A stretch of 64,000 bases of DNA, from the NCBI GenBank assembly GCA_951406725.2, contig OX597829.1, forward strand, positions 57,350,001 through 57,414,000, in the 5' to 3' direction. Below the pieces are notes generated by a model. It saw nothing but the letters and a program-made list of their open reading frames with translations. It was not told where the DNA came from and searched no databases. The number at the start of each line of letters is the position of its first letter. The stretch's first letter is position 1. Shown here piece by piece: positions 4,355-59,653 of the stretch. Origin of the DNA: Octopus vulgaris. Its lineage: Eukaryota. The translations under genes were made by a program, and so were the position numbers.

Positions 4355-5138
4355 TTTAAAATATTTTAATTACTGAAATCAAAGTAATTAATGTAACGGT
4401 GAATCGAAGTAAGAAGTAAAAGTAAATAATGTCTTACAGCTATCATGGATCAACGTTTTTGGGATATCTCAGGTGATGGATCACTGGATCAGACACTGAA
4501 TATTCCACCATCAGAGACAAGGTGTGTGTGTGCAGGAAAGTTCTAGACAGAAAATTTAATATAGATAGAAGTATAAAGTTCATCGTGTTCCGGCGGGCAT
4601 GTGGGTTTGTCCACGTATCCGTGTGTCCAGAAAGCAGGTTGAATGAATCATTCAGGTTGGGAGAATAAATCTAGCAGTTAATGGTCATGCGGATATTGTT
4701 AAGAAAGAGATCAGGAGATGTATATAATTTGGGAAGGATTCTCAACCTATCCAATTGTCCGTCTTAGATCTATCTAACTATCCTACTGATCCCTTTTCTT
4801 ACAACATCCGCATGAACATTAAACTACCAGATGTATTCTATCAACCTGAATGATTCACTCAACCTGCTGTCTGGACTTAGCTGGGATTAAACGTAAAGAG
4901 ATACACCTTCACGGATACATAGACAAACCCCCATGCCTTCCAGAACAAGATGAACTATGAACTTTGCACATACACCTTGTCTCTGATGATGGAATACCCA
5001 GTGCATGGAGATGTTGATCAACACATTGATCCATTACCTGCAATATCCCAGAAACAGCTGTAAGACATTATTTTCCTCTTCCTTACGTCGATTCACCTTT
5101 ACATTGATTACTTTAATTACATTAATTAAAATATTTCA
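4355..5138. mobile_element. Non-coding foldback element with hammerhead motifs in both arms (family A)
   Basis: Left arm ~4355-4720 is the diverged reverse complement of ~4780-5138, e.g. gttcatcgtgttccggcgggcatg vs catgccttccagaacaagatgaac. Confidence 0.8.
4978..5067 (+). ncRNA. Type-I hammerhead ribozyme motif with extended stem II (family A)
   Basis: tgtct | CTGATGA | tggaata...tatccca (61-nt stem II domain) | GAAA | cagctg | TA | agaca. Stem I is 5 bp and stem III is the palindrome acagctgt. Confidence 0.75.
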
Positions 5139-9384: not shown

Positions 9385-10957
9385 ATTTAAAGAGTGGATG
9401 AGTTGATGTAGAGAATCATGGCTTGGCTTCGTGAACGAAGATTAGGAAGGTTGTGCACATCTTCTGCAGGCACGCCCATGACTGACCAGTCCGATGCGGG
9501 CAAGGCAGGTCCGTGAGCAGTGTCCACAGACGAAGGTAACATCCGATGTGGTATCAGAGGCGGATCGCGCCTTCCTCCTGCGCCTCTTGTCTTTATGCGC
9601 GTCTCTTCTGTGTTCTTCAAACTCGACCGCGTTGAAGATCGAGTGGCACCAGGCATCACGGTCGCCAGCCAGGTCTGACCAGGATTTGTGGTCAACATGA
9701 CATGCGGTGAGAGACTTTATGAGGCAGTCTTCGTAGCGTTTCCTCGGGGCTCCTCTCTCACGGTGACCGGTAGAGAGTTCGCCAAACAGGGTAATCTTAG
9801 GAAGGCGATGGTTCTCCATTCTGGAGACATGCCCTGCCCATCGGAGGTGGTACTTCAGTAGCATGGCTTCAATGCTGGGGGTCTCGGCCTGCTCCAAAAC
9901 TTCAATGTTTGTGACGAAGTCACTCCAGTGAATGTTGAGGATGGTGCGGAGACATCGCTGGTGGAAGCGCTCGAGGAGACGGATGTGACTGCGGTAAGTG
10001 ACCCAGGTCTCCGAGCCGAAGAGGAGAGTGGTGAGAACCACGGCCCTGTAGACGCTGATCCTTGTCTTGTTCTTCAGGTTATTATTGTGCCAAACACGTT
10101 TGTACAATCTGCAAAAGGAGCTAGAGAGTCTATTGTCAATTTCCTTGTCGATCCTTGCATCGGATGAGATGATGCAACCCAGGTATGTGAACTGCCGTGT
10201 TGATTTCAGTTCGGTACCGCAGATAGTGATGTTGGGTAGGCGGTATACCTCTTGGGGTGCAGGCTGGTGAAGTACCTCCGTCTTCATGAGGCTGACCTCC
10301 AGGCCAAAGAGCCACTAGGCGTCCGCAAAGCAGGACGTGATGCACTGCAGAACTCGCTCTGTGTGGGCGACGAGAGCAGCATCATCCGGGAAGAGAAGGT
10401 CACGGATCAGCCTCTCCTGGGTCTTGGTGTGGGCTTGGAGGCGCCTTAGATGGAAGAGGCTGCCATCCAGACGGTACTTGACACTCCATCCTCATCCTCC
10501 ATATCTTTAGTATCATGCTTGAGCATCATGCTGTAGAGTCGGTGCCAGGGTTCAATCCTGCTTCACGCCTTTGGAGATGGGGTAGGGCTCCGGCAGGTCA
10601 CCATTGAGTCTGATCTGGCCACGCTGGTTCTCGTGTAGCTGGATCACCATCTGTAGAAACTTGGTGAGACAGCCAAGACGTTCCAGGATGAGCCATAGTC
10701 CTGTCCTGCTCACTGTGTTAAATGCTTTTGTAAGGTCGACGATAGTAGCATAGAGTCCGCTGTTTTGTACTCGGCACTTCTCCTGGAGTTGGCGGAGGAC
10801 GAACACCATATCCGTCGTGCCTCTGTTGGCTCTGAAACCACACTGGCTCTTGGGCAGGTTTTCTTCAGCAATGGTTGGTACGAGCCTGTTGAGTAGGATC
10901 CTGGAAAGTACTTTGCCAACGATAGAGAGTAGGGTGATTCCCCGGTAGTTGGAGCAC
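9385..10957 (-). mobile_element. RTE-clade LINE, 5'-truncated, frameshifted RT and C-terminus
   Basis: ORFs 10552-10809 (VDLTKAF..V, GVKQ) and 9442-10287 (FTYLG, LRWAGHVSRM..RLPK, C-x2-C..GL.SH zinc knuckle) are typical of RTE/BovB-like ORF2. Confidence 0.92.
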
Positions 10958-11053
10958 CTTCTACAGCTGGTGTCTTACAACTAATAAACAGTACAACAAG
11001 TTTAGCTGGCGTATTTGGAAAAAATGCCTTTATCGGCAGACGATATATTTATA

Positions 11054-13734: not shown

Positions 13735-16700
13735 AAAAACGAAGATGGCACCAAAGTGAGAAAAGAAAGAATTAAATCTTCTGCTACGAGCATGGGTGAT
13801 TGCTAATGGCGATCCGCCAAGCAACATCATCACTGCTGCAAGGGCTTTCACAGAACCATCGACCAGATAGAGCGGAAGAAGAGTGAATTTATCCGGTCTT
13901 ATATGCTTATAAGACCACACATCAACATTTTGGATAACATAATCAAAAATTATTGTGGGAAGGCTAATAAGGATGGAGAAGACGAAAAAGAAAAGGAAAC
14001 AAAACCCGGAAGTCTCCTCTTGAGGTTCCTCAAGAAAATGGATCACCCGCCCCGGTGAACGACCAGGCAGAAAAGGATAGGGGAGCCAAGGAAGCAGTAA
14101 CTGGAAGCCCCCCTGTGCCAGTGGTCCTACAGAGGAACGGAGCCCTCACCCCATTAGAATAACAGAAGAAAAAAGGAAGGACGGAAGACAAAAATAAAGA
14201 AGGAAAGAAAGAAAAAAGAAAAGGCAAAACAACCAAAACCGAAACCCCAACCCACCAAACAAACAACAGAAAACCCCATGGAGGATCCAATGCCATCCAA
14301 AACCCTACAGGAAAGAAGAGATATGGAAGGCGCCCAAGAACCTGCAAATTTTAGCTGCAGGGCAAATGTTGGCATGGGGAGGACAGCAAAAATTGCCGGT
14401 TTGCCCACCCGCCACCCCGCCAGAACTACAGGGGCCTTAAAGAGAAAAACTTTACTGAGGAAAGACAACAAATGTCTCCCAGGAAAACATTTAGAAAAGA
14501 AGTGTGCTCCTCAGATGTTCTGCGCAACGCAGCAGCTGAGCAAGAGTCTTTTTTGTGCATGGCGCAAAGGATTGTACAGCAACTAACCTGGCTACACCAT
14601 GCACAAAGAAGGAACCTTGCTCACCACTATGCAAGACCACCACAGTCAACAGACACGGGATGGCCTCCCCTAACGCCTGCACAATCGTCACCCCAGTACT
14701 TTTACTAAATATTGGGGGCCTGTTGCATCAAAATAAAAACAAAATTTCTTTCCTGAGAGATCTTACTGCATGCAATCAAGCCCTATGCATAGCACTCGTG
14801 GGACTCACCTCAGCTCTGATATAGAGGACGCAGAAGTACACGTACCAAACTATGCCATACTGCAAACAGACCGAAGGGAAAGGAGCCATGGTGGAGATGC
14901 TGTAAACATCCGTGATGACCTCACAGCCCATGTCTTACAGTCATACTCAAATTCAGTATGTGACACTTTAATTGTATACATAAGACAACATAATATAGTC
15001 ATTTGCAATACATATTGCCCACCGGATGCCCCAAACCACACAGGCAAGTTTGAAGATTGCCTCACAAGAATTAAAGAAATCCTCATGAATCTGGAACACC
15101 ACGTGACCATATTTCTTATGGGTGATTTCAACTTCCTCAACGTCAAATGGTCTGAAGGTCTCATACTCTCAGGAATGACTCATTGCAAGCAAGCACAGGT
15201 GGAGTCCCTGCTCAACCTCACCAATGCCCTATTCATGGAGCAAGCTGTTCTTAGACCAACTAGGGCGAATAGCATTCTGGATCCCTGCTTCACGAACAAT
15301 ATGGATATCATTCATGATGTGAAAGTGACACCGACATTAGTCTCGGATCACAACATAAAAGAGCTGTCTATGTTTGGGTCGAAAGTAATATACAGCCTAA
15401 AGGAAGCACCCGAAATCTCTCCAATCTGATCTTCCACAAAGCAGATTGGAAATCGATCCAAAAAGAGATCCTCAAGAGAGCCTCAGAGAGGACTGGCGAA
15501 AATGTCTCTCCATACCAGACATTGACATGAAACTAGAATGTTTCATGTCTTCTGTGCAAGCCATATGTCAGAAATATGTCCCAGAACACATCGCCGAAAC
15601 AAACAGGAGCAAGATTCCAAGAGAGAGGAAGATCCTCATGAGACGACGGACGAAGGTTGCAAATCGACTCAACCAACATCCCAAAAGCAGCGAAACGTCC
15701 CGCCTAAAAACAACACTGATGGAGATCGAAAAAAGGCTGCAACAATCCTATGTGAAGGAGAAAGCAGACAAAGAAGCCTGGGTTATAAAAAACATTAAAT
15801 CAAACCCAAAGGCCTTCTTTCATTACGCGAAAGTTACAGTCTCAGTGCACTACAAGATAGGACCCTCCTCCAAAAGGATGGCTCCCTCACAGACAGTCCA
15901 ACTATGATCAGTGAGATGCTGAATGACCAATTCAAAAGTGTCTTTACAACCCCGTTGGAACACAGACAAGTGAACGAACCAGTGGTCTTCTTTGCCGCCT
16001 CACCTATAACCAACGAGGCAGTTACAATGGAATACATTGACATTAACGAAGAAGATATACTACTAGCCATAGATGAAGTGGACACAAACTCAACTGCTGG
16101 TCCTGATGGTTTCCCAGCAATCCTTCTCAAATCATGTAAGCATGCCCTTGCAAAACCCCTCAAGATTCTCTTCCAGAGCTTTCTTGCGAATGGCAAACTG
16201 CCAAGCAAGCTGTAGGAGGGAATAATATGTCCAATACATAAAGGGGGGAGTAGAGCAGATGCCAAAAACTATAGGCCTATCTCTCTGATTTCACACATCA
16301 GCAAAGTCATGGAACGGATAGTCAGAGGGAAACTAATTGCATTCCTTGAAGAAAATAACTTGCTGAGTGATACCCAGCATGGTTTTCGACCAGGTAGGAG
16401 CTGCCTGACCCAGCTCTTACATTATGACTGGGTGTTGAGGCAGTTACTCAACAAATCAAATGTGGATGTAATATACCTTGATTTTGCAAAAGCTTTTGAT
16501 AAAGTGGATCATGGTATGATATGCCACAAACTGCGTTACCTCGGCATAGTTGGAAAACTTGGAGAGTGGTTACATGACTTCCGGAAAGATAGGAGTCAGG
16601 CAATAATGGCTAATAGAGTCACCTCTATGAACACACAAATACTGAGCGGTGTTCCACAGGGCACTGTCTTGGGACCACCGCTTTTTATAGTGGCCCTCTC

Positions 16701-17690
16701 AGTTATGCCCTCAAATGCCCTGATAGCCACTCTGGCAAGCTATGCAGATGATACGAAAGTCTCGCAGAAAATACAGAACTCCAGCGATGTTGCAGGAGTT
16801 GGACTCTATTTACAGATGGGCTGAAGATAATAATATGCAGTTTAATGCTGAAAAATTCCAGGCCCTGCGCTACCAGCATCCAAAACTGAATATGAAACTT
16901 ACAAGGTACACCGGTCCACAGGGAATTTAAATCCCAGAATCTAAGTCAGTGAGGGACCTGGGTATCGACATGAGTGATGATAACACTTTCCAAGTGCACA
17001 TTACCAGGATGGCGACAAAGTGCAGACGACTGGCTGGATGGATTCTAAGAACATTCAGAACCAGAGATAAGGAAACCATGATGGTCCTCTGGCAGACAAA
17101 CGTCCTCAGCCGCCTGGATTACTGCTCACAGCTATTGTCACCCACCAGTGTAAAATTAACAAGCGGACCTTGAAGCAATCTAGAGAAGATTCACAAAGAA
17201 GATCGTCTCTTTGCAACAGCTCAGCTACTGGGAAAGGTTGAAACAGCTAAGACTCTACTCCCTGGAGAGAAGACGGGAGAGGTATGCAGTAATATATGTC
17301 TGGAAGATCCTGGAAGGAATTGTGCCAAATTTTAGCATTGAAAGCTACACCAATACTAGAACGGGACGACACTGCATAGTGCCAAAGATCCCAGCAATGC
17401 CATCACGCTTCAGGACCAGTTACTGCAACAGCCTGGGTTTCAAGGGCCCACAGCTTTTTAATATTCTCCCAAAGAGTCTGAGGAACTTGCACAAAGTAGA
17501 TGTAGGGGTTTTTAAATCAAAGCTGGACCTCTTCCTGTCGAGAGTCCCAGATGAACCTACCTCACGGCAAGAGGTGCAAATGAGAGTAGCCATTCTTCAC
17601 TAAGTGCCACATATTAGAGGAGGCTCTTAGTAATAACAGTGTAGCAAAACGGCGGTGCATAAGCATGGCCGCAGCTCTGAGCTGAAACTA
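13735..17690 (+). mobile_element. Near full-length CR1/L2-group LINE (ORF1 remnant, APE, RT, 3' tail), pseudogenised
   Basis: APE 14770-15429. RT motifs GPDG, QHGFRPGRSCLTQL, YLDFAKAFDKVDH, SGVPQGTVLGP, YADD. C-terminal YSLERRRER. Several stops and frameshifts. 5' boundary approximate. Confidence 0.92.
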
Positions 17691-18344: not shown

Positions 18345-18496
18345 TTAATTTTATTTGTTAAGGAATAAAAATTCCGGAATAACAGGGGTTCAAATTATTC
18401 TCAATGAGGAAATATATATTTTCATTTAGAGATAGTAGGCCCCTTCATCTCACCATATAAAAGAATTTTAATTTAAATACTTACTACTTATATCTC

Positions 18497-18591
18497 AGCC
18501 ACACTTGTTTCTTGAGGTACATTTCCCGGTTCCTTAACCATGCCGTATTTTGCTGGAACCATTCTTAAAATATAACCCCAATCATCAGGCC
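18497..18591 (-). ncRNA. Hammerhead motif family C (left arm)
   Basis: Minus: ggc | CTGATGA | ttggggt...acctcaa | GAAA | caagtg | TG | gct. Core intact, but position 17 is G. Confidence 0.55.
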
Positions 18592-19148
18592 TCTAAATCA
18601 CTTACTCATTGTTCAATACTATAAATTATATTTTAATTTTAAAGTATGTGTAAAATAGGTTCGCTGGACCCTACAGTACAAGCCATAATTCAAATAAAAA
18701 TTCAAATAAAAAATTACAAAAATAAAAATTACAAAAATAAAATAAGAATGCAAAAAAAAAATACGAAAAATAAAAAATTTACAAAATCTATGTTAGTAGT
18801 ATATAGGGTTAAAATATCTACTTGTGATAATATAAAATGATATAGAATTAAAAGAATGGCAAGAAAAATACATACGAATAAAAATACGTATAAAAATGGA
18901 GGCAATGACGAATAAAGATTTTCGAATAAAAGCTATTGTACTAATTACGAACTGCAAAATTTACGAATGATAACTTTTAAAAATTTAGAAAATAAAATAA
19001 AATAAAATAAAAATAACTTGATGGTAACGCAAAGGAAAATATAAAAGTCACCGGTGACTCCATTATCCTACAACGTCTTAATTATGGCTTAACATTGCAA
19101 AGTCCAGCGAAGTACTCACACTATAGAACGATGAGAAAGTGATTTAGG

Positions 19149-19243
19149 GGCCTGATGGTTGGGGTTATATTTTAAGAATGGTTCCAGCGAGACACGAAGT
19201 GGTTTAGGAACCGAGAAATGTACCTCATGAAACATGTGTAGCC
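19149..19243 (+). ncRNA. Hammerhead motif family C (right arm, A9G variant)
   Basis: ggc | CTGATGG | ttggggt...acctcat | GAAA | catgtg | TA | gcc. Confidence 0.5.
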
Positions 19244-19392
19244 AAGTTATAAAATAATAGGTATTTAAAATAAAAATTCTTATTTATATGGTGAGATGAA
19301 GGGGCCTACTATCTCTAAATGAAAATATATACATATGTATATGTATATGTATATATATATATCTGTATGTATATATATATGTATGTGTATAC

Positions 19393-21536: not shown

Positions 21537-21639
21537 TAACCTGATGAGTCGCTATATTTATATCGAAGTGATTTTACTATTACTATTAATTTTTTACTAT
21601 AATCATTTCTTAAATATAGCCACGAAACGCGTGTCGTTA
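21537..21639 (+). ncRNA. Type-I hammerhead ribozyme, extended stem II (family E)
   Basis: taac | CTGATGA | gtcgctatattta...taaatatagccac (76 nt) | GAAA | cgcgtg | TC | gtta. Confidence 0.82.
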
Positions 21640-23611: not shown

Positions 23612-25238
23612 CAGTTGCGGCTAAAATGTTCAGAACGGCATTGTTTTCGTCAGAAAAGTAGATATAAGTTTTTATCAAAGTTGTTTTGTATTCTATAATT
23701 TTCACAGACAATAAATACGATATTTTTTGTTTTTGTCTGAGATTTTGGTGTAATTTGAGAGGATAATAAAAAAGTTATGGATGATTTAGGGATTTACTGC
23801 AAAACCTATGGCGGCCAAAATGATCAGAATGGTTGCTTTTACTCCATGTTTTAGTATATTTAACCGTCGAACTCTAATGTTTTGAATTTGTTTACGTGAC
23901 AGTTCGTTTACTAAACATTAGTAAGAATATCTGCAGTGTACTTTGTTAATATAATGCCACTTACTCCGTTACCAATTCGTCAGCAGATTATTAAGCTTCG
24001 AAAGAAGGATAATTTAAGTATTAGGTCTATTGCAAAGATTGTTAACAAGTCAAAAAGTGTTGTTCACGGTATTCTTAAGGTCTACGATGATTGTGGTTCG
24101 TGTGAAGCAAGAAAGTCTACAGGTAGGCCAAGAAAAACGACCAAGAAAGAAGATCGTGCTATGGTAAAGTTGGTTAAAAAGGACAGATTTAAAACTGCTG
24201 CTGCTGTTTTTCGGGAAATGAGCATTGTACTGAAGAAAACTTTATCTCAAAAAACTGTCTCATCGTTTAGTTGAACATGACCTACAAGCAAGAGCACCTG
24301 CAGTGAAGCCACTGATCAGCTCCAAGAATAAAAAGTGTCGTCTTACCTTTGCAACCGAACATGTGTTGTGGTCTCAAGAAAATGGCAAACGGTGCATTTC
24401 AGTGATGAATCTAAGTCTATGTTATTTGGCTCAGATGGGAAAAGGTACGTTCGTCGAAAAGCAGGTGAAAAATTGTCACCTAAATGCCTTAAGACTATTG
24501 TTAAATTCGGTGGAGGAAGTGTCATGGTTTGGGGGATGATATCTGGAGATGTTGTGGGCCCTTTGCTGCGATTACATGGAAAGGTAAATGCAGGAGTTTA
24601 TAAACAACTTGTAAAAGATCATGTCTTGCCTGTGCTGAGAAATTCAACTAAGCGACCACCCATATTCATGCAGGACAATGCCCCATGTCACAAGGCTAAG
24701 GTGGTCATGAACTTCCTCAAGGCTGAAAAGGTTATTGTTATGGATTGGCCTGCTCAAAGCCCAGACCTCAATCCTATTGAAAATGTGTGGAATATTCTAG
24801 GAGAACGTCTGAAAGCCAGAAATCCTAAAACAACCGTGCAATTATGGAATGCCCTTCAGGAAGAATGGAATAAGATCACCCAGCAAGAAATTGAAAATTT
24901 AATTTCCCCATGCAGTCGAAAATGTCAAAGTGTGATTGAAGCTAAAGGGCTTCACACTAAATATGAAATAATTCCAGCTTTCTCTGTCACTTTTTGGTTA
25001 TTATGTTATTTTTTCAACCGTCCTGATCATTATGGCCACCATGGGTTTTGCAGTAAATCACTAAATCATCCATAACTTTTGTATTATCCACTCAAATAAC
25101 ACCAAAATCTCAGACAATACCAATTAATATCGTATTTATTGTCTGTGAAAATTATAGAATATAAAACAGCTTTAATGAAAACTTATACCTACTTTTCTGA
25201 CAAAAACAATGCCGTTCTGAACATTTTGGCCGCAACTA
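23612..25238 (+). mobile_element. Full-length Tc1-family transposon, IR/DR type (~220-bp TIRs, TA target duplication)
   Basis: TA|cagttgcggctaaaatgttcagaacggc ... gccgttctgaacattttggccgcaacta|TA. Outer and inner direct repeats (gcggc.aaaatg.tcagaa.gg) in each TIR. Confidence 0.95.
23954..24967 (+). pseudogene. Tc1 DD34E transposase with two frameshifts
   Basis: HTH plus GRPRK (MPLTPLPIRQQ...TGRPRKTT), then FSDESK, QDNAPCH, SPDLNPIEN, split over ORFs 23936, 24303 and 24335. Confidence 0.92.
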
Positions 25239-26980: not shown

Positions 26981-27147
<167 letters not shown>

Positions 27148-27314
27148 AAATTAGAAAATGGAGAAACATACTTAAATCAATCAATCATCAACTATCAGAT
27201 AATACCCAATCAATACTTTTTTACACCATTACATAACAGCAAAGACATTATACATAATATATTGTAAATATAGCTAGACATAGAAATATAAATATAAAAT
27301 ACAATTACATCATA

Positions 27315-27425
27315 TCTGACAGCTGTTTCGGCCGTGAGGACAAGTATGTCTCATTTAACCTATTAGCCACATAAAGCAGGTATAAATGAGACATTAACAA
27401 GGATGTCTCACGGCCTCTTCAGAGA
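27315..27425 (-). ncRNA. Type-I hammerhead ribozyme, intact core, 86-nt stem II (family F)
   Basis: Minus: tct | CTGAAGA | ggccgtgag ... ctcacggcc (perfect 9 bp, plus inner perfect 12-bp atgtctcattta/taaatgagacat) | GAAA | cagctg | TC | aga. Confidence 0.88.
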
Positions 27426-27690
27426 ATTAATATAAGTGTGAAAAAAATTTACATATAAATATAAAAATATAAAATATAAAGATGTGTGCATAGACACTCA
27501 TAATTCTACACATATCTATATACATACATATACACATTAATACAATAATACAATATAAACAAAATATATCAGTATACATTAACAAACACAGTTATTTTCC
27601 ATATTGGACTCCTAGTTCCATAACTAACATCAAGGAAATACATATACACTCATATACATATACACTATTTAAACATATACACTATTTAAA

Positions 27691-27739
<49 letters not shown>

Positions 27740-27792
27740 GTATATATATATGCGTTTAAATACATGTATATCTATGAATATGTCTGGCTGTT

Positions 27793-34344: not shown

Positions 34345-34822
34345 GTTACAAGAGAGTTGCATAAAATGAGGCAAACCTGGGATCGGATAGGGTGTAGGGA
34401 TCGGTATGCTCTGTAGATGTGAAAGGAGAGTTGAAGATGAAAAGGAGGGGAATGTAGTGAGCAGGCACAGGTAGGGGAAGGGGATGTCGGGAAGATGTGT
34501 TGTGGGGAAGGGATTTTACAGAGACATATTGCACGCAGGTAGGTTTGTTAGGGAGAGTGGGAGATAAAGAATAGAGGAATTCAACAGGTGCTGAATACGA
34601 GTGGGGAGGGATGAGGAGAGAGGGATATGATATAGGAGAGAGTGTTGCCAGTGGACAGATTGCATGTGGAGTGGGGGTAGGGCATGAACATGCCTTTATG
34701 GCCCCTATGCGTTTGCCTGTATGTATAAATGTATGTAGGGTTCTCCCCACTCATATTCAGCACCTGTTGAATTCCTCTCTTCTTTATCTCCCACTCTCCC
34801 TAACAAACCTACCTTCGTGCAA
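34345..34822. repeat. Purine-rich repeat with internal ~76-bp inverted duplication
   Basis: 34531-34606 is inverted at 34745-34820. Confidence 0.75.
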
Positions 34823-34864
34823 TGGCCATACTTGATAACGAGGGGGCAGCCACCATATATAAAT

Positions 34865-36425
34865 ATTTAGTCCCTCTGACCAACCTCTGGAGAAATTCGC
34901 TAGACACAGGTTATATACCGAAACAGTTTCTATCCCAGTCGGTCATCCCGGTTTTCAAACAGGGAAACAGATCCCTCGCAGTCAACTATCGCCCAATCTC
35001 ACTCACCTCCCACATCATTAAAGTGTTTGAAAGAGTGTTAAGATCAAGGATAGCTGACTTCATGGAGACCCACAAACTCCTAAATTCAAATCAGCATGGC
35101 TTTCGCTGTGGCAGGGACTGTCTAACACAGCTCTTACACCACATTGAAGATGTACTCAAAGCCCTGGGAACAGGTTCGAACTCTGACGTCATATATCTTG
35201 ACTTCAGTAAAGCGTTCGACTGGGTTGACCATAATATCCTACTCTTAAAATTGGCAAATGTTGGAATCCGTGGAAAAGTTCTACACTGGATTAAGTATTT
35301 CCTGGCGAATAGAACACAACATGTTGTAGTTGATGGAGTCCACTCAAGCCCAGCAAAAGTCACCAGCGGTGTTCCCCAGGGGACTGTCTTGGGTCCGCTA
35401 CTCTTCATAATTTACATAAACGACCTTTCCAGTGTCGTACATTACTGCAAAGTGAAAATATTTCCTGATGACACTAAGCTCCAGCAAATCGTCAATGAAG
35501 AAGCAGACCGAACTCAACTCCAGTCTGATCTATATGCTGTGAGTCAATGGGCAGACAGAAACAAAATGCAACTGAATGAGGGAAAATTTGAGCTGATGCA
35601 TTTTGGAAGAAATTCCTCACTAAAATAGCCATACTCTCTTCCTTCAGGGGAACCGCTCACAGCCTCTAACAATATCAGAGACCTGGGTGTAATTGTTGAT
35701 GACGATCTCAGTTGGAGTGCACACATCAACAAGAAGGTCGATATAGCTCGTAGGATGAGTTCCTGGATCTTAAGAACTTTCCGGTCCAGAGAACAAGGTG
35801 TCATCATACCACTTTTCTCCTTTGTACGGCCACACCTCGAATACTGCTGCCCACTGTGGTCTCCCCATACAAGACAAAACATCTCCAGGATTGAGTCACC
35901 CAGAGGGCACTCACTAAACGAATTGAAGGCATGGCTGCTCTCGATTATTGGGATCGCCTTAAAGTCTTGAAACTTTACTCTCTCCAGCGTTGCCGTGAGC
36001 GGTACATCATTTGTACGATGTGGAGAATATACCGCCAACTTTGCCCAAACGACCTAAACATTAGCTTCAAGGTTCATCCGAGACTGGGGCCACGGGCCAT
36101 ACGTCCCCTGCCCAATTCAAAATCACAACATACATGTACACTGCAACATAATTTCTTTTCCTCAACAGGCCCTGCCCTATTTAACATTGTCCCGAGGGAG
36201 ATCAAAGAGGAAAAGGATCCCATCAACTTTAAACGGAGTCTGGATAAATTCCTTCAAAGAATACCAGATAAGCCACCCATAATTGGATACAACTCACCAA
36301 ACAAGAACTCACTACTTGAATAGACCATAAACAAAACTTGACTTAAACAGAATTCGGATAATCCTATCAGGTGGTGCTATTAAGTTAGACATGGCCTGGA
36401 CCAATCTTTGGTCGAAACATATCTA

Positions 36426-36622: not shown

Positions 36623-37491
36623 TATTTTTTAAAGAGAGATAGAGTTCCTTTCTGATAGATTTTTTTTCTCTTATCTGACTTTATGTTGGGTTTGCTGTCT
36701 CTTATATGTGAAAAAAGAGGCTCCAGAGTTGTTTAAGATTTGCTTGGTTTCGCGCCTAAAATTTCTTGTGGACAATGGTCAATACAATTTTGATTAGTCA
36801 TTATAAAGGGGTCACGTGAATATTTGAATGGAAGTTGGTGTTGGGGTAAGAAAATAGGCTCCAGAGATGTTAAAATTTGGCTAGTGTCGCGCCTAAAATT
36901 TCTTATTGGTCATAATAAAGAGGTCACGTGGGTGTGGTCATAATAGAGAGGTCACGTGAATGTTTAGAATGAATGTTGTTGTGGGTGGTGTATGGAGTTT
37001 TCGAAAATAGCGTTGTTGAAAATTCTTATTGTTCAGGCTGGTCAGTAGACGTCATGTGGATATTTTAAATAGCTTTTTAGTGCGTAGTTAAGGAGTGTAT
37101 TTTCCGCTTGACTGAATTTGAGCTGGATAAGTAAGTTCGTTTAGGACACGAAGAGTTATATGTATGTATGTGTGTGTGTGCGCGCGCGCGTGTGTGTGTG
37201 TGTGTTTATATGTATGTTGGGGCGCGCGCGCGTGTATATATGTGTGCGTGTGTGGGTACAATTTTCAATATTTATAGTTCTGCTGGCCTTGTGCCTGTAT
37301 CGGGAAGCAACGTGTTTGTGTGAAGTCAATATTTACAGTCGTTTCCAAAAAATAGTGTTGGATGTTTTGCACCCGTATCAAATTATGTGTATGTGTGGAA
37401 CCATATATTTGCGTGTGTCATGGTGTTAATATCTGGGTAAAAGTGTGTGTAGGGTGTGTGCAGGTGTAAGTGTGTTTGTTGTGGGTTCGTG

Positions 37492-38644
37492 TTAGGGGGA
37501 TGTGTTTAGAAGTGGTCTGTATTTATTAATAAGGTGGGATTCCATGGTTATTCGCTGGGTATGAGTGGCATTGTCTTTAAATTTGTAGAGGGGAAAGATT
37601 CTAAAATTGGGATGAAGTTGTGCGGCACAAGTATCAATATGTGCACTAAGTGCTATTTTTCTGTATTCCTGTATTTTTATTTGGGATCTGTGGACAGTCA
37701 TGCGTTGGCGGAGGCTATTTTTAGTTTGGCCTATGTAGTGTTCATTACAGCCCGAGCAAGTTAAGACATATACTAGGTTTTCTGATGCGCATGTGAAGTT
37801 GTGTTTTACTGTGAAACGTTGTCCTTGTTTAAAAAGGAATTCCGGACCTTCTATTAGGTTGATGCATATACCACAGTTGGGTCTATTGCATTTGTTTACT
37901 GTGGGTTTAGTTGTTGTGGTTGGCAGTACTTTGGCATTTGTTAGGATGGTTTTCAATGATTTGGGTTGCCTTTTGCTCTTTATGATTTCGTGTGTTAGGA
38001 GGATTTGGTTCATTCTATGGTCCTTTTTTAATACAGGAATGTTCTGGAGGATGGTGTCAAAAGCTTCATTGTTGAGGGGGTTGTGTGTAGAGATGTATGG
38101 TAGAATATGGGGTTTCGATGTAACAGGTTTAGGGCGTCTAAGTTCCTGTGTGCTGAGTTTTAGGGCGCGATGGATCCCATTGTCAATTAGTGACGTGGGG
38201 TAATCCCTGCTTGTTAATGTGTCCTTAAGTTCTTGTAGGCGTAAGAGACGGGTGTTTTTATTGGAGACTATAGTGCAAATTCTCTTGGCTAAGTTGTAGG
38301 GAATGTTAATTTTAACGTGTCTAGGGTGGCATGAATTGAAAGGGAGGTATTGCTTGGAGTCTGTGGGCTTGTAGTATATGTCTGTTTCTATTTTTTGTTG
38401 TGAATTTTAATGAGGATGTCGAGGAAGGGAATTTGTTGAGGGCTGTATTCCATTGTGAAAATAATGTTTGTGTTGAGCCCATTTATAAGGGTGTGAAATT
38501 CTTTAAGCTTCTCGATGGTTTCGGGCCAAAGGATGAAGCAGTCATCAAGATATCTCTTCCAGTTCTTCTCTATGTGTGTGTGGAGAGTGGTGCCAAATTG
38601 GTTAAGAACGTTATTATAGAGGGTGATTTCCAGGTATCCCATGA
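37492..38644 (-). pseudogene. PLE RT C-terminus/thumb plus GIY-YIG endonuclease, 5'-truncated, one frameshift near 38391
   Basis: WKRYLDDCF, FTME, IPFLDI, then YYKPTDSKQYL.FNSCHP, C-x4-C-x2-C, FTCASENLVYVLTCSGC..HYIGQT...RMTVH. Confidence 0.93.
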
Positions 38645-39243
38645 CTACACACAACCCCCTCAACAATGAAGCTTTTGACACCATCCTCCAGAACATTCCT
38701 GTATTAAAAAAGGACCATAGAATGAACCAAATCCTCCTAACACACGAAATCATAAAGAGCAAAAGGCAACCCAAATCATTGAAAACCATCCTAACAAATG
38801 CCAAAGTACTGCCAACCACAACAACTAAACCCACAGTAAACAAATGCAATAGACCCAACTGTGGTATATGCATCAACCTAATAGAAGATCCGGAATTCCT
38901 TTTTAAACAAGGACAACGTTTCACAGTAAAACACAACTTCACATGCGCATCAGAAAACCTAGTATATGTCTTAACTTGCTCGGGCTGTAATGAACACTAC
39001 ATAGGCCAAACTAAAAATAGCCTCCGCCAACGCATGACTGTCCACAGATCCCAAATAAAAATACAGGAATACAGAAAAATAGCACTTAGTGCACATATTG
39101 ATACTTGTGCCGCACAACTTCATCCCAATTTTAGAATCTTTCCCCTCTACAAATTTAAAGACAATGCCACTCATACCCAGCGAATAACCATGGAATCCCA
39201 CCTTATTAATAAATACAGACCACTTCTAAACACATCCCCCTAA
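38645..39243 (+). pseudogene. Second (inverted) copy of the PLE GIY-YIG region
   Basis: ORF 38623-39243 is identical to 37492-38013 over the shared part except G/D in IEGPE/IEDPE. Confidence 0.93.
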
Positions 39244-39529
39244 CACGAACCCACAACAAACACACTTACACCTGCACACACCCTACACACACTTTTACCC
39301 AGATATTAACACCATGACACACGCAAATATATGGTTCCACACATACACATAATTTGATACGGGTGCAAAACATCCAACACTATTTTTTGGAAACGACTGT
39401 AAATATTGACTTCACACAAACACGTTGCTTCCCGATACAGGCACAAGGCCAGCAGAACTATAAATATTGAAAATTGTACCCACACACGCACACATATATA
39501 CACGCGCGCGCGCCCCAACATACATATAA

Positions 39530-39561
<32 letters not shown>

Positions 39562-39784
39562 ACACACACACACACACATACATATAACTCTTCGTGTCCT
39601 AAACGAACTTACTTATCCAGCTCAAATTCAGTCAAGCGGAAAATACACTCCTTAACTACGCACTAAAAAGCTATTTAAAATATCCACATGACGTCTACTG
39701 ACCAGCCTGAACAATAAGAATTTTCAACAACGCTATTTTCGAAAACTCCATACACCACCCACAACAACATTCATTCTAAACATT

Positions 39785-40398: not shown

Positions 40399-41103
40399 AA
40401 TTAGAAAAAAACCACCTTTTATGAATTCAACAATGAAAAAATTTAATTGTATCATATAGAAAAAAATTACATCCTTTTTTTTAGTATATATTACTTAGTT
40501 AGAATAAGATTTAACTTTAATGTTCATTAAATAAATTAATTAATTAATAATGTAATTTAATGTATATAGATTAAATTATAGTATTTTAGTTTTCACTTAA
40601 TGTATACGTTGTATTATATATATATATATATATTTGTTTTAAATAATTTAATTAATTGTATTTTATTTTCTAGTAATGATATATTATAGTTTGTTATTCT
40701 TTTCTTTTATGTGTTAAATTTTATTTTTATTGATATAATAAATATTTATACCTATTTATGCTATTTTTATTTACACCAGAATATATATTTGTTAAGATAT
40801 TTCGTATTTTACAAGATTATATATGTATATTTATTTATTTAATTATTTTATTGTTTTTATCTTTGACCTGAAGAGTAGCTATATTTAAATTGAATTGATT
40901 TTACTGTTATCAGTTCTTAAATATAGCCACGAAACACGTGTAGTCATTTTACCAAATATACACGCTTTATTTATTATTTTGTACATTACTTAAACATTGG
41001 TATATGTTTTTATCTTACGTTTAATTTTTTCTATACGTTGTAATTTTTTTCTGTATGGTATAATAAAATTTTTTCATTGTTGAATTGATAAAAGCTGTTT
41101 TTT

Positions 41104-41110
<7 letters not shown>
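40395..41110 (+). mobile_element. Hammerhead element family E, copy 2, with inverted ~80-bp copy of its 3' end at the 5' side
   Basis: 40401-40471 is inverted at ~41039-41108. Flanked by (TA)n. Confidence 0.75.
40864..40946 (+). ncRNA. Type-I hammerhead ribozyme, extended stem II (family E)
   Basis: tgac | CTGAAGA | gtagctatatttaa...ttaaatatagccac (56 nt) | GAAA | cacgtg | TA | gtca. Confidence 0.85.
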
Positions 41111-44506: not shown

Positions 44507-47500
44507 TCGTCTTCCTTTCGTATGTAAAACACAACTTTCGATAGCAACATGCTCAAAATAAGCAGTATAAATGAACATGGCTTAGGATCGCCTTAGAAAC
44601 AAGGCTACCTCTTAAACGACTTCAAGTCACAAAATCTGCATATCATAGCCATCAGCGAGACCAGACTCCACAGCCCGCGAGCACTCCAGCACATGTTCGG
44701 CGGACATTTCGACATTTATTTTTCTCCGTGTCTGCCGATAATGGGCGGAGGTGGCACCGCGGTGCTTCTTCGGAAGAGTCTGGACCTCAAAGTAAGAGCA
44801 ATTTTCCTAGACCCAGAGGGTAGGCTGGTTGTCTTGGATGTCGATGGCAGCAATGATTGTGCTTTTCGACTGATAACAGGTTATGCACCGTCCTTAACAG
44901 GCCGGCCAGATTTCTTTCGACGTCTAGAGGTTTTCCTGGGTACGTCTCGACCTTTACTTTTAGTGGGGGATTGGAACGCCACCCTGGACACGCATCTAGC
45001 CTACGTGGGCAGAGATAATAATAGGAGGGTATGCAAATGCCTCAAAGACCTGCTCAGACGTTTCCAACTGTCTGACAGGTACCGACTGGACCACCCGAAT
45101 CTGCCAATGTGGACATGGAGCAACCGCATCGGGTCATCCAGATCATACTTAGATAGAGTATTCTGTAGGACAGTGGATAAGGATAGTGTAGGTTGTCCAC
45201 AATTCCATATAGTCAGCTACACAAACCACAAATTTTTCACTTGTACACTTGACTTAGATAAGACACATAGGCAGGGTCCCGGTTACTGGAAGCTGAACGC
45301 GTCTTTCACGGCACACCAGGCTTACCGGGACCGGATTAGCACATTAGTCAAGAGAGCATTGACGGGTGCCGTCATCAACAACAGATGGTGGTGTGTATTA
45401 AAGAAAGCAATTAAAGCAGAATCGGTTAGGTACAGTAAGGCCCTAGTATTAGACCGAAATAGAATAGAGGGAGATTTAGTTAAGAATTTTGAAGAAGCAC
45501 TAAAAATTGACATCGCGTCCAACGTACTGGCAGCGAGGTTGGCCCTCGACCAACACCTCAACGCCAAACACGAAGGATGCGTGCTCTGAGGAACGAAGAA
45601 GTTGGAGCCGTCCGAGAGGCCCGAGTGGCGGAGGCACAACGAGGCAACAGAGCCACCATTAGGTCACTTACAGATGAACAGGGGCGCGAATTACTCGAGC
45701 CTGAAAGGATGTGTGAGGCCTTTCAACAACACTTTGCCCGACTGTTCGGGACAACTGGTGGGTCTGAACACAGAGTGGACTTTAGTGCCTACCTGCATGG
45801 CCTGCTACGACTCTCAGCAAGAGAGGCGGAGTGTTGTGAAAGACCCACGATAGCCGCGGACATACGGGATGCGATGGCAGGCTGCGCGACAGACAAGTCA
45901 CCAGGTTTGGATGGTCTGCCCTACGAACTTTATTCTCATATGCCAGACTTGTGTGGAGACGTCTTGGCAACTGTCTACTGCAACTAGCAGCAAAACGGGA
46001 GTATCCCCGCCTTTGTAAAGCGAGGAGCACTGCTAAAGAAAGATCTAAACAAGGGGACGTCATAGATACCTTCAGGCCCATCACTCTGCTCAACGCAGAT
46101 TTGAAAATTTTGGCCAAGATGTTAGCCGAGATGTTGGCGCTTGTCATCGAGAAACTAGTCGACAAGGCGCAAACGTGCGTCGTGGCGAGTAGGAGTATCC
46201 ATGACAACCTCCATCTTTTGCGCTACATCATAGACAGGGTAGTTAACGAACTTGGAATGGGTGGAGCACTGATCAATTTGGATCAATCAAAAGCTTTCGA
46301 TAGGGTAGACCATCACTACTTGGCGGCTGTCCTTAAAGCGGCTGGTTTCTGCCCCATATTCCGCGGTTGGATCGCTGCCTTATACAGCGGCATCCGTTCA
46401 GTAGTTCGCGTAAATTGTCATCTATCCAGACCTTTTAACATCATGCGTTCGGTTCGTCAAGGTTTCCCCCTCTCATGGCTTCTGTATGTATTGACTCTGG
46501 AGCCACTACTGCGGAAACCGGCGACTCTGAGGGGTATCCCACGAGAGCTGGGATGCGGGAGGAGCGTGTCTGTATACGCGGACGACGTCACCGTCATAAT
46601 GTCGAACCACAAGCACATCGAGCTGGTCGGCGAGACACTAAAAGAATACGAAGCAGTAACGGGAGCAAAAATTAACCGGGAAAAGTCAGTGGACTTGCGG
46701 CTCGGTACCTGGAGAAGCAAGCCCATGACGTCCAACGGCGTCTCTATTGTGGGACGCTGGACCGACGGACCGGTTAAATTGCTCGGGGTCTGGTTCGGTC
46801 CGGACCTCCAAGTGGAGAAGAACTGGGGCGAAATAACGACTAGGGTGGCCACTCTCACTCAGCAATGGGCCGAGTGGAAGCTATCCCTAAAAGGTCGGGC
46901 GGAGGTGGTGAACGCGTACATCGCATCCGTCATCGATTACCGTCTGACAGTCGTGCCTTGTCCCAACCTTACCATCACCAAACTGGAACGTATACTCTTC
47001 CGCTTCCTGTGGAAAGGAAGCGTTCCGATGGTCAGGCGATCCATTTGCTGTCAACACCCGCTAAATGGAGGACTAAGCATGCCGTGGTTGATGATGCGTA
47101 GACATACGCTGAGACTGCGACATCTCCGGCGCTTCATAGACGACGGTCGACATGTGTAGTCGACGTTTGTGCGACGCGCTTTCCCACAGCTCGTCTCCTT
47201 GGCCGAACTACAATCGTGGATCAAACAGAGACCGAGGCTTGGCGAATGGCACCGCGAGTGTCGCGTTGCTCTCAAGCAACTCTGCCGTCCGGGACCAAAC
47301 TTGTGCGACTTCATTACAACAAAGGCGTTCTATAGAGGATTAGTGGAGAGTCGGGACCTATGGACAATCACCAAAGATCCCTGGCCCGGCAGTGCTATCG
47401 AGATGCATTAGCTGTTCGGGATAAGCTCTACAGGCACGGTTCGAGACAAATTCTTCTGTGATAAACGATCCCTTTTGATCGACTTTTTTTTCCCCGATCC

Positions 47501-58059: not shown

Positions 58060-58400
58060 AGGATGTACTTCCTTTCAAGTGGGCATGGATTAAAAATTTC
58101 ACTTCTGCAGTTCAGGTTGATGCCTGTGTGCTGGGAGCTCTTTAATGTCACTCTTTTCTCAGTCAGGCATCATCTGCGCATCATCTGCGCCGCCATTGAA
58201 GTATGCTTTACATTTCTCTAGAATCATCCACTTTATGCTGTGATCAGTGCTGCTTTCTTTCAAAGACCATACATGCTTGGCCAAGATTGTAATGCTACGT
58301 CCCTCTGGGATATTGAAGGAGGACTTGTGGTTGTTATAGTGAGTTCTGAAGGGACCTTCAGTTGCTCCCACATACTTTTGCCCATTTGGTTGCCCGTTTG
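58060..58400 (-). mobile_element. Penelope-like GIY-YIG endonuclease remnant (third PLE family)
   Basis: KYVGATEGPFRTHYNNHKSSF...LAKHVWSLKE...IKWMILEK.KAY, then CLTEK...LNCRSEIF..C after a frameshift. Confidence 0.8.
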
Positions 58401-58590
58401 GTTCTATTGCTGATATCTCTGCCTCCATAAATCCTCTAAAGCTTTCCAACATAAACTTGTAGTAGACATCCATAGATTTAGATCTTCTGATAGAACCCTT
58501 CTATTCACTGGTAAGACTAAGTCCACCCCTGAGACAGAAGCAGGATGGTCATGTGGGGCTAACACAACATGTCCACTGAATGTATATATA

Positions 58591-58846
58591 TATATATCTG
58601 TAAATGTAATATGTAACAATTATTTGGTAGCCATGTTAAAACTCTGAGTTTCGGATGCCAAGGTGGAAATCCACACTACCATCTCTTCAGTTATCCGGCC
58701 ATCAAAAAAATGCTATGAGGGACATTTTCCATAGCATTTTGCTGATGGCCAGATAACTGAGGAGATGGCATGGATTTCCACCTCAGCATCTGAAACTCAG
58801 AGTTTTAACATGGCTACCGAATAATTGTTACATATTACATTTACAG

Positions 58847-58921: not shown

Positions 58922-59063
58922 AAATATGGGGGGTTTAGTTCACAGGTGATCAGAACGACTAGGTACGCTGGGTAAGCGCTGTAATGGATTACCAGGGCTC
59001 CAAGCTCATACCTGAGATGGAAGTTAGAGAACCGTTGTAGATTTCTGATATAGTGGATATATA

Positions 59064-59604
59064 ATTGTTAAAGAGCACAATAAACACAAAGGCAAGACAC
59101 ACTTCTCAAGTCATATACGTTATTATAACTGGAGAAATTTTAATGTCTTACAATTGTTTCTGAGTTATCCCAAAATATAGGATATTCTGTCAATGGAGAC
59201 AAATAAGGAAAATGTGAGGGGTATCGATTAAGGAAACAACGACATGGAGGGATGGAGAAAAGGAATAAAGAAAAGAATCCTATAATCATACATGGATTTA
59301 CGTAGGACTACACCTAAGGACTTATGGACTAACATCTACAATATTGGAATATTGAATTGTGAACTTTTATGCCCTTCTTTCTTCTTTTTCCACTTTTACT
59401 TATTTCATTTTCTCCAGTTCCCCTTGTCATCATTTCCTTAATCTGCACCCTTCACAGTTTCCCTATTTCTCTCCAATGATAGAATATCCCATATTTTGCA
59501 ATATCCCAGAAACAGCTGTAAGACTTCAAAATTTTCCAGTAATGATAACATATATGACTTGAGATGTTTGTATTGCCTTCAGGTTTTATTGTTATCTTTA
59601 ACAA
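59064..59604. mobile_element. Older foldback element related to family A, with degenerate hammerheads in both arms
   Basis: Right arm tct | CCAATGA | ...tatccca | GAAA | cagctg | TA | aga (~59470-59523). Left arm mirror at ~59146-59200 with stem III caattg. Confidence 0.75.
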
Positions 59605-59609
59605 TCACA

Positions 59610-59653
<44 letters not shown>

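Follow-up and report, generated by a model that had tools for sequence, protein, structure and literature searches.

The minus strand of the analysed window, a stretch of DNA of 64,000 nucleotides, carries at positions 27315-27425 a type I hammerhead motif that we consider likely to be of the Penelope-like element (PLE) kind, located in the 3′-terminal repeat (pLTR) of an element that targets (TA)n. One arm of this motif, stem II, is about four times the usual hammerhead length. PLE hammerheads as such are known, even in octopus; the less ordinary part of our analysis is the occurrence of a structured stem II of 56-86 nt in four unrelated families.

The type I consensus CUGANGA...GAAA...NUH is present, with three helices arranged around a core that opens at stem I. 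The original prediction listed a 9-bp and a 12-bp helix, an intact core, a palindrome and a GUC site without naming a strand; all of these features are found in the sequence, and the core reads on the minus strand. A pattern search of the locus found no hammerhead core on the plus strand, and a plus-strand ribozyme was rejected on that ground. Read in the RNA sense, the motif begins with the 5′ strand of proximal stem I, UCU (27425-27423, with a pair probability of 0.64-0.65), followed by the catalytic core sequence CUGAAGA (C3-A9, 27422-27416). Stem II, defined from sequence and fold, extends over 86 nt (27415-27330) and consists of two nested helices. In the basal helix, positions 27407-27415 pair with 27330-27338 at 9 of 9 positions, with G10.1 at 27415 and C11.1 at 27330, while the inner helix pairs 27383-27394 with 27346-27357 at 12 of 12 positions. 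The tip (27358-27382) contains a bulge, short helices and a loop, and is variable according to both the fold and the variants among copies. The second core sequence, GAAA (G12-A15.1, 27329-27326), leads into the stem III palindrome, ACAGCUGU (27319-27326), which can form 2 bp closing an AGCU loop in a monomer or an 8-bp self-complementary duplex between two copies. The GUC triplet occupies 27320-27318, and the 3′ strand of proximal stem I, AGA, occupies 27317-27315. On standard hammerhead numbering, we take the predicted cut to lie 3′ of C17, between 27318 and 27317 of the minus strand.

Beyond its three contiguous pairs, stem I is predicted to continue, after a 2x2 internal loop, with a distal part of 8 and then 3 further pairs. 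In the minimum-energy fold, the 5′ strand of this distal part is located at 27428-27439 (8 bp at 27435-27428 and 3 bp at 27439-27437), and its 3′ strand at 27301-27312. The hammerhead with a canonical loop contact, as described in PMC4209133, has a helix I of 6 bp, a helix II of 4 bp and interacting loops; with a proximal stem I of 3 bp and a basal stem II of 9 bp, the canonical loop 1-loop 2 geometry is absent from the window motif. Stem II also contains a direct repeat, 27340-27353 against 27397-27410, that is identical at 13 of 14 positions, and this repeat suggests that the long arm may have grown by local duplication. The same repeat allows a competing 9-bp hairpin that dominates the folds of short transcript prefixes.

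Judged from its sequence, the anatomy of the motif matches that of PLE hammerheads, and best that of the (TA)n-targeting Hydra clade. According to Craig et al. 2021 (PMC8557442), Hydra-clade PLEs target (TA)n and carry hammerheads with a short stem I near their 3′ end. The window motif shares with them the type I topology, the short stem I, the four-letter stem III strands, the place near the 3′ end and the insertion into (TA)n. A stem III of ACAG/CUGU, that of the window motif, appears in 4 of the 26 rows of file S2 of that paper; those four rows have 2 unpaired nt in the loop, whereas stem III of the window motif has no unpaired loop. The hammerhead of Hydra-1_oBim from Octopus bimaculoides has, in the same file, a stem II of 22 nt, against 86 nt in two nested helices here. 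The metazoan PLE motifs of PMC4209133 resemble the window motif in their core, G10.1-C11.1 pair, palindromic stem III, AU-rich flanks, mostly dispersed single motifs and proposed dimer action, and the Drosophila willistoni PLE motif (fig. S3 of that paper) has the same stem III of 2 bp plus AGCU. The unpaired nucleotide between A9 and position 10.1 that is usual in that set is missing in the window motif.

Helix II with its loop reaches, by eye, about 23 nt at most in the 56 representative metazoan PLE motifs of PMC4209133, a set whose descriptor limits the size. PLEs are already known to include an enlarged stem II: that of the Selaginella PLE-X1_sMoe hammerhead, with 9 + 35 + 9 = 53 nt the longest we encountered, is marked as deviating from canonical in file S2 of PMC8557442. 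That enlarged stem II is like the one in the window, but it belongs to a plant element that lacks an endonuclease and targets 28S rDNA, and it has a shorter arm and another stem III. In the literature that we covered, no PLE hammerhead from an animal is described as having so long a stem II.

The motif is embedded in an AT-rich dispersed repeat unit of 544 bp (27147-27690, minus strand), whose RNA-sense 3′ end lies at the low-coordinate side. On that side, the unit is bounded by a (TA)n/(TG)n/(TA)n run (26985-27146), the presumed insertion target, 173 nt from the predicted cut; a second (TA)n run (27691-27752) marks the 5′ end. GC makes up 43% of the motif, 21% of the remaining unit and 26% of the unit as a whole. 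The AT-rich element with (TA)n borders that had been described from the sequence is thus confirmed. A three-frame translation, inspected by eye, contained no coding-like frame in 27147-27690, and self-BLAST of the element against the window returned low-complexity matches only, with no second or tandem copy.

Elsewhere, the element is present in 20 of 24 listed public runs, from 11 studies and under 4 organism labels. Homologous contigs were aligned from four of these runs (X1, X2, X8 and X16) at 80% likeness. X2 and X8 may be RNA, although none of the runs containing the element is listed as such. In X1, 1329 contigs lie on the element, with 104, 301, 679 and 245 of them in the identity classes of 99% and above, 95-99%, 90-95% and below 90%, respectively; as 924 are under 95%, the element is a diverged multi-copy family. 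The summed depth is approximately 2e5 at the core, rises up to 5e5 near 27166-27203 and falls to 5e3-2e4 at 27546-27659 (27441-27542 was skipped as a repeat, and no contig covers 27451-27526). It is thus 10- to 50-fold lower to the right of 27545 than at the core and the 3′ end; although depth is not a copy number, such a slope would be expected if copies are often truncated at the 5′ end. The unit also exists whole elsewhere, since its high-coordinate end in X2 and X8 likewise enters (TA)n, about 20 letters past 27652. The window copy is probably a dispersed, non-coding unit of approximately 545 bp, which would be either a terminal repeat (solo or 5′-truncated) or a non-autonomous derivative of small size.

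The size of this unit and its lack of an ORF would also fit a solo monomer of a non-LTR retrozyme, whose tandem arrays elsewhere would be cut to monomers of about 545 nt, circularised and reinserted. Retrozymes are described as tandem and circularising (Cervera and de la Pena 2020, PMC7229834; bioRxiv 10.64898/2026.07.22.740005), and those of the non-LTR type share with the window element low GC and non-coding units that measure a few hundred bp and contain a single type I hammerhead each. The preprint reports consensus lengths of 51-972 bp and dispersed monomers, and the recurrence of the same right-hand end in two other data sets also speaks for this reading. Nevertheless, the window holds no tandem copy, and the depth drop to the right of 27545 fits 5′ truncation better than monomers of unit length. 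Among the joints listed in the four runs, the only one is an 83-nt skip in X2; none runs backward and none joins end to start in any of the four, a listing that lacks two joint rows at repeats in X16 and is drawn from short contigs, which can hide backward joints. With the same reservation for short contigs, the window element differs from non-LTR retrozymes in that neither a tandem array nor a circular joint was seen and helix sizes of the canonical loop 1-loop 2 kind are absent. We consider a retrozyme monomer unlikely here; since the preprint argues that retrozymes derive from PLEs, it would in any case be a close cousin of the PLE terminal repeat that we favour.

The window is microsatellite-rich animal DNA with LINE, Tc1-like and PLE remnants, and its SINE-like repeats appear similar to octopus ones. 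By eye, translations contain LINE reverse-transcriptase remnants and a decayed Tc1-like transposase at 23915-25075 (+), 9442-10974 (-), 14737-17603 (+), 34804-36323 (+) and 44597-47159 (+). A PLE endonuclease remnant at 37492-39243 matches Pfam GIY-YIG with an E-value of about 1e-6. It lies in a region (37000-39740) that forms an inverted pair of a PLE 3′ half, with GIY-YIG, a CX2-5CxxC-like linker and 98.5% protein identity between the arms. This element was rejected as the parent of the repeat, as its plus-strand copy has no intact core within 1 kb past the stop codon. A further GIY-YIG-like remnant at 58159-58500 (-) has no Pfam match and only weak tblastn similarity to 37492-39243; by eye, its frame is similar to the part of Hydra-1_Obim that ends in the endonuclease. 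Within the window, neither the 27147-27690 element nor any of the five intact hammerhead motifs described below has a PLE ORF attached, and none of the listed loose ends of the homologous contigs enters a PLE ORF by eye.

Hydra-clade PLEs are marked by a reverse transcriptase with DKT/RWK motifs, an endonuclease lacking CCHH and a CxCX5C linker (PMC8557442). As the element has no ORF in which to look for these features, it is at most a candidate member of that clade. The (TA)n on both of its flanks is not diagnostic of that clade, since Naiad elements also insert into (TA)n in the same paper. Naiad was rejected as the parent: the published octopus Naiad 3′ ends are unlike the element by eye, and searches of the PMC8557442 supplement for the exact motif returned nothing. 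The published 3′ end of Hydra-1_Obim has no resemblance to the element by eye either. Craig et al. (PMC8557442) describe half-cores 35-50 nt apart in eight Naiads, one of them from octopus. In the supplement sequences of Naiad_Obim and Naiad_Ovul, inspected by eye, we observed GAAA before CUGAUGA just past a short inverted repeat, an order that might represent a permuted hammerhead rather than a half core.

Among the variants listed (40 of 50) for the homologous copies in the four runs, none that reaches 5% falls in the core, in stem III or in the proximal part of stem I, while the rest of the element has at least 40 variant rows. Paired positions 27349 and 27391 of the inner helix co-vary, with changes in 74% and 73% of the depth in X1, 22% and 22% in X2, 61% and 77% in X8, and 41% and 70% in X16, respectively. 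The change is compensatory, from an A-U type to a G-C type pair. The equal depths in X2 suggest that a single contig carries both changes; most sites are unphased. Three further changes produce G.U pairs on the minus strand only, at 27348 (12-61%), at 27338 (3-60%) and at 27330 (rare but for one X8 contig). The modelled energy cost on the plus and minus strands is 5.7 and 1.9, respectively, at 27348, and 3.5 and 1.9 at 27330, with none on either strand at 27338.

The basal helix behaves differently from the inner one. At 27333, a change that leaves an uncompensated C.U mismatch accounts for 62%, 25%, 61% and 31% of the depth in X1, X2, X8 and X16, respectively. The mismatch costs 6.2 kcal/mol in the model, and the partner change that it would need is not among the variants listed in any run; the 5′ strand of the basal helix (27407-27415) has no variant among those listed. 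The basal helix, described originally as perfect, is so in the window copy and not in the family, where this mismatch takes 25-62% of the depth. The original prediction required homologous copies to conserve the core and the pairing; among the listed variants, the core and the inner helix do so, and the basal helix does in part. The stem II tip varies in sequence and length, with variants at 27364, 27370 and 27375, and with indels and loose ends behind 27359-27360. In distal stem I, a common change at 27311 (20% of the depth in X1) replaces a U.G pair by U-A, and one X2 loose end would, by eye, also keep this helix; the flank is nonetheless variable between copies. The pair 27349/27391 is the only fully compensatory one seen across copies; it may go back to a single change that a subfamily has inherited, or to repair of the inverted repeat at the level of DNA.

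The motif had been presented as a single one; the window contains four more intact type I motifs with a long stem II. These are located at 4973-5067 (+; core 4983, stem II of 61 nt), 19838-19748 (-; core 19832, 60 nt), 21537-21639 (+; core 21541, 76 nt) and 40864-40946 (+; core 40868, 56 nt). Stem III is palindromic in the five motifs, including that with its core at 27422, except in one where it is only near-palindromic. With five intact motifs having stems II of 56-86 nt, long stems II are typical of this window, the longest and most stable being that of the 27422 motif. The motifs with cores 21541 and 40868 are related (73% over 296 nt) and the others are unrelated, which makes four families. 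Between the two related motifs, stem I has changed on both of its strands, and a difference of 20 nt separates the tips of stem II. All five motifs are located 121-297 nt upstream of a (TA)6 or longer run, against 21.5% of background positions within 300 nt of such a run. Compared with shuffles, three of the five stems II reach z-scores of -5.0 to -7.2 and two are modest (z of -1.5 and -2.1).

These two modest values, together with the 13-of-14 direct repeat, the competing hairpin of the short transcript prefixes and the common uncompensated mismatch in the basal helix, agree with a reading in which the motif is derived from a PLE and its long stem II is a by-product at the DNA level, produced by a short duplication and template-switch repair of an inverted repeat. 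The element would then spread passively, and the ribozyme would be inactive or irrelevant; insertion in vitro without hammerhead activity in another PLE, that of the anole, is compatible with this. However, the catalytic core has no listed variant against at least 40 variant rows elsewhere, and the wobble changes suit the RNA strand that bears the core. Additionally, long stems II occur in four unrelated families, and stem I has changed on both sides in the 21541/40868 pair. We judge such a by-product slightly less probable still than a retrozyme monomer, and retain the hammerhead of a PLE terminal repeat as the preferred reading.

Fold and shuffle controls uphold the original claim that chance assembly is implausible. 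The minus-strand region folds at -49.1 kcal/mol with a z-score of -5.5, a value equalled by none of 200 shuffles, and stem II alone (27415-27330) has a z-score of -7.2, with none of 300 shuffles as stable. A strict descriptor that combined the core with a palindromic four-base loop closed by two pairs, a stem I of at least 3 bp and a spacer of 6-150 nt found 4 motifs in the window, whereas 200 block-wise dinucleotide shuffles gave 0.005 on average (maximum 1). When the palindrome was not required, 5 motifs were found against 0.115 in shuffles. Using similar degenerate patterns, stem I (at least 3 bp) is closed in 4 of 4 core-plus-palindrome matches in the window, in 0 of 69 in viral contigs and in 0 of 9 in metagenome contigs, and these 69 viral and 9 metagenomic matches were judged to be chance on that basis. 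Exact patterns specific to the family of the 27147-27690 element gave no match in either the metagenome or the viral contigs.

No match in the whole window reaches the Rfam gathering scores, and none of its motifs attains the 34-bit threshold of Hammerhead_1 (RF00163). The 27315-27425 motif has the core and topology of that model in common, and yet a search around it at E-values up to 10 returned no hammerhead, only miRNA models driven by microsatellites and weak chance matches. The sibling motif at 19838-19748 does match Hammerhead_1, with 23.6 bits and an E-value of 0.00085, below the 34-bit cut-off, and has 56 nt where the model has 10. Stem II length is not shown to be the sole cause of the missing matches, since a pair of hammerhead-like motifs with short stems II, at 58600-58845, has no Rfam hammerhead match either. 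A chance meeting of core-like words around an ordinary inverted repeat, to which the lack of an Rfam hammerhead match at the locus lends some colour, is rejected as next to impossible by the shuffle control (4 motifs against 0.005), the open stem I in all 78 pattern matches from unrelated collections, the Rfam match of the sibling and the conservation across the family.

The original prediction also proposed activity that depends on dimers, on the grounds that stem I is only 3 bp long. Dimer use by the motif appears plausible because of its weak monomeric stem III, its palindrome and the predicted dimer fold; the length of stem I is not a reason for it, as this helix is predicted to extend beyond 3 bp. 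In the model, stem III pairs in the monomer with a probability of 0.002-0.003, and the palindrome forms a self-duplex of -11.1 kcal/mol. In the best monomer fold, at -49.1, the CAG of stem III is paired to C3-U4-G5; the active fold of the monomer, at -43.9, is 5.2 kcal/mol worse. A double-hammerhead fold reaches -103.7 kcal/mol, 5.5 better than the -98.2 kcal/mol of two monomer folds, and falls to -87.5 without distal stem I, so its advantage holds only if distal stem I forms.

We propose that the minus strand would be transcribed and that the monomer would misfold through the pairing of C3-U4-G5 with the CAG of stem III. Two copies, either tandem pLTRs of the parent element or two transcripts, could then join through the 8-nt palindrome into a double hammerhead, which, possibly aided by the protein of the element, would cut after GUC. 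The reverse transcriptase/GIY-YIG protein of a PLE would insert the copy into (TA)n. As for the long stem II, it would represent a tolerated structured extension of the arm that has no catalytic residues. A solo genomic copy would need a second transcript to cut, and the copy in the window may well be silent cargo.

Published systems cover a range of such behaviour. Cleavage by Schistosoma PLE motifs was weak and required either dimers or stabilisation of helix III (PMC4209133). For an axolotl motif with a 2-bp stem III and a tetraloop, the monomer reached 22% cleavage in an hour and the dimer performed much better (PMC7229834), so dimer use need not be strict. The hammerhead of the anole PLE cleaved only with the protein of the element, and its mutants still inserted in vitro (PMC11167929), which indicates that the cut may not be needed.

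The published core search in PMC8557442 used a spacer of 7-17 nt, and 235 Hammerhead_1 loci are reported for the giant squid. Since the window motifs fall below the Rfam thresholds and outside the 7-17-nt spacer, such counts may greatly underestimate the ribozymes in these genomes. The family supplies natural variants, with and without the basal mismatch and with differing tips, for studying the effect of stem II length on dimer- or protein-assisted cleavage. More speculatively, and with low confidence, we suggest that the motifs may belong to a large uncounted PLE-type class in this lineage, probably octopods, in which several unrelated families have independently extended stem II to 55-90 nt and selection maintains it as double-stranded RNA. 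In such a class, stem II could be a docking site for the protein of the element, replacing the missing loop-loop contact, or could instead be an A-to-I editing substrate that tunes cleavage. If we take the genome size to be 2-3 Gb, five motifs per 64 kb, in this one window, would presumably extrapolate to the order of 10^5 motifs genome-wide. About 10^5 such motifs would then be invisible to the Rfam thresholds and to published descriptors.

Several other hammerhead-like structures were observed in the window. The short-stem pair at 58600-58845 lies in a palindrome of 245 bp that has (TA)n runs on both sides and arms 87% identical to each other; its two motifs face outward, have stems II of 28-31 nt and carry stem III letters identical to those of the Hydra-clade Penelope-3_HM row in file S2 of PMC8557442. 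At 18345-19345, an inverted pair (87% over 210 nt) has degenerate hammerhead-like ends with stems II of about 70 nt, both facing (TA)n. Another inverted pair, at 59060-59610 (80% over 212 nt), contains the 3′ half of a hammerhead only; an identity of 28 of 28 nt relates it to the 4983 family. Finally, the AT-rich unit that holds the 40868 motif, at 40400-41105, has terminal inverted repeats of 66 bp with 89% identity.
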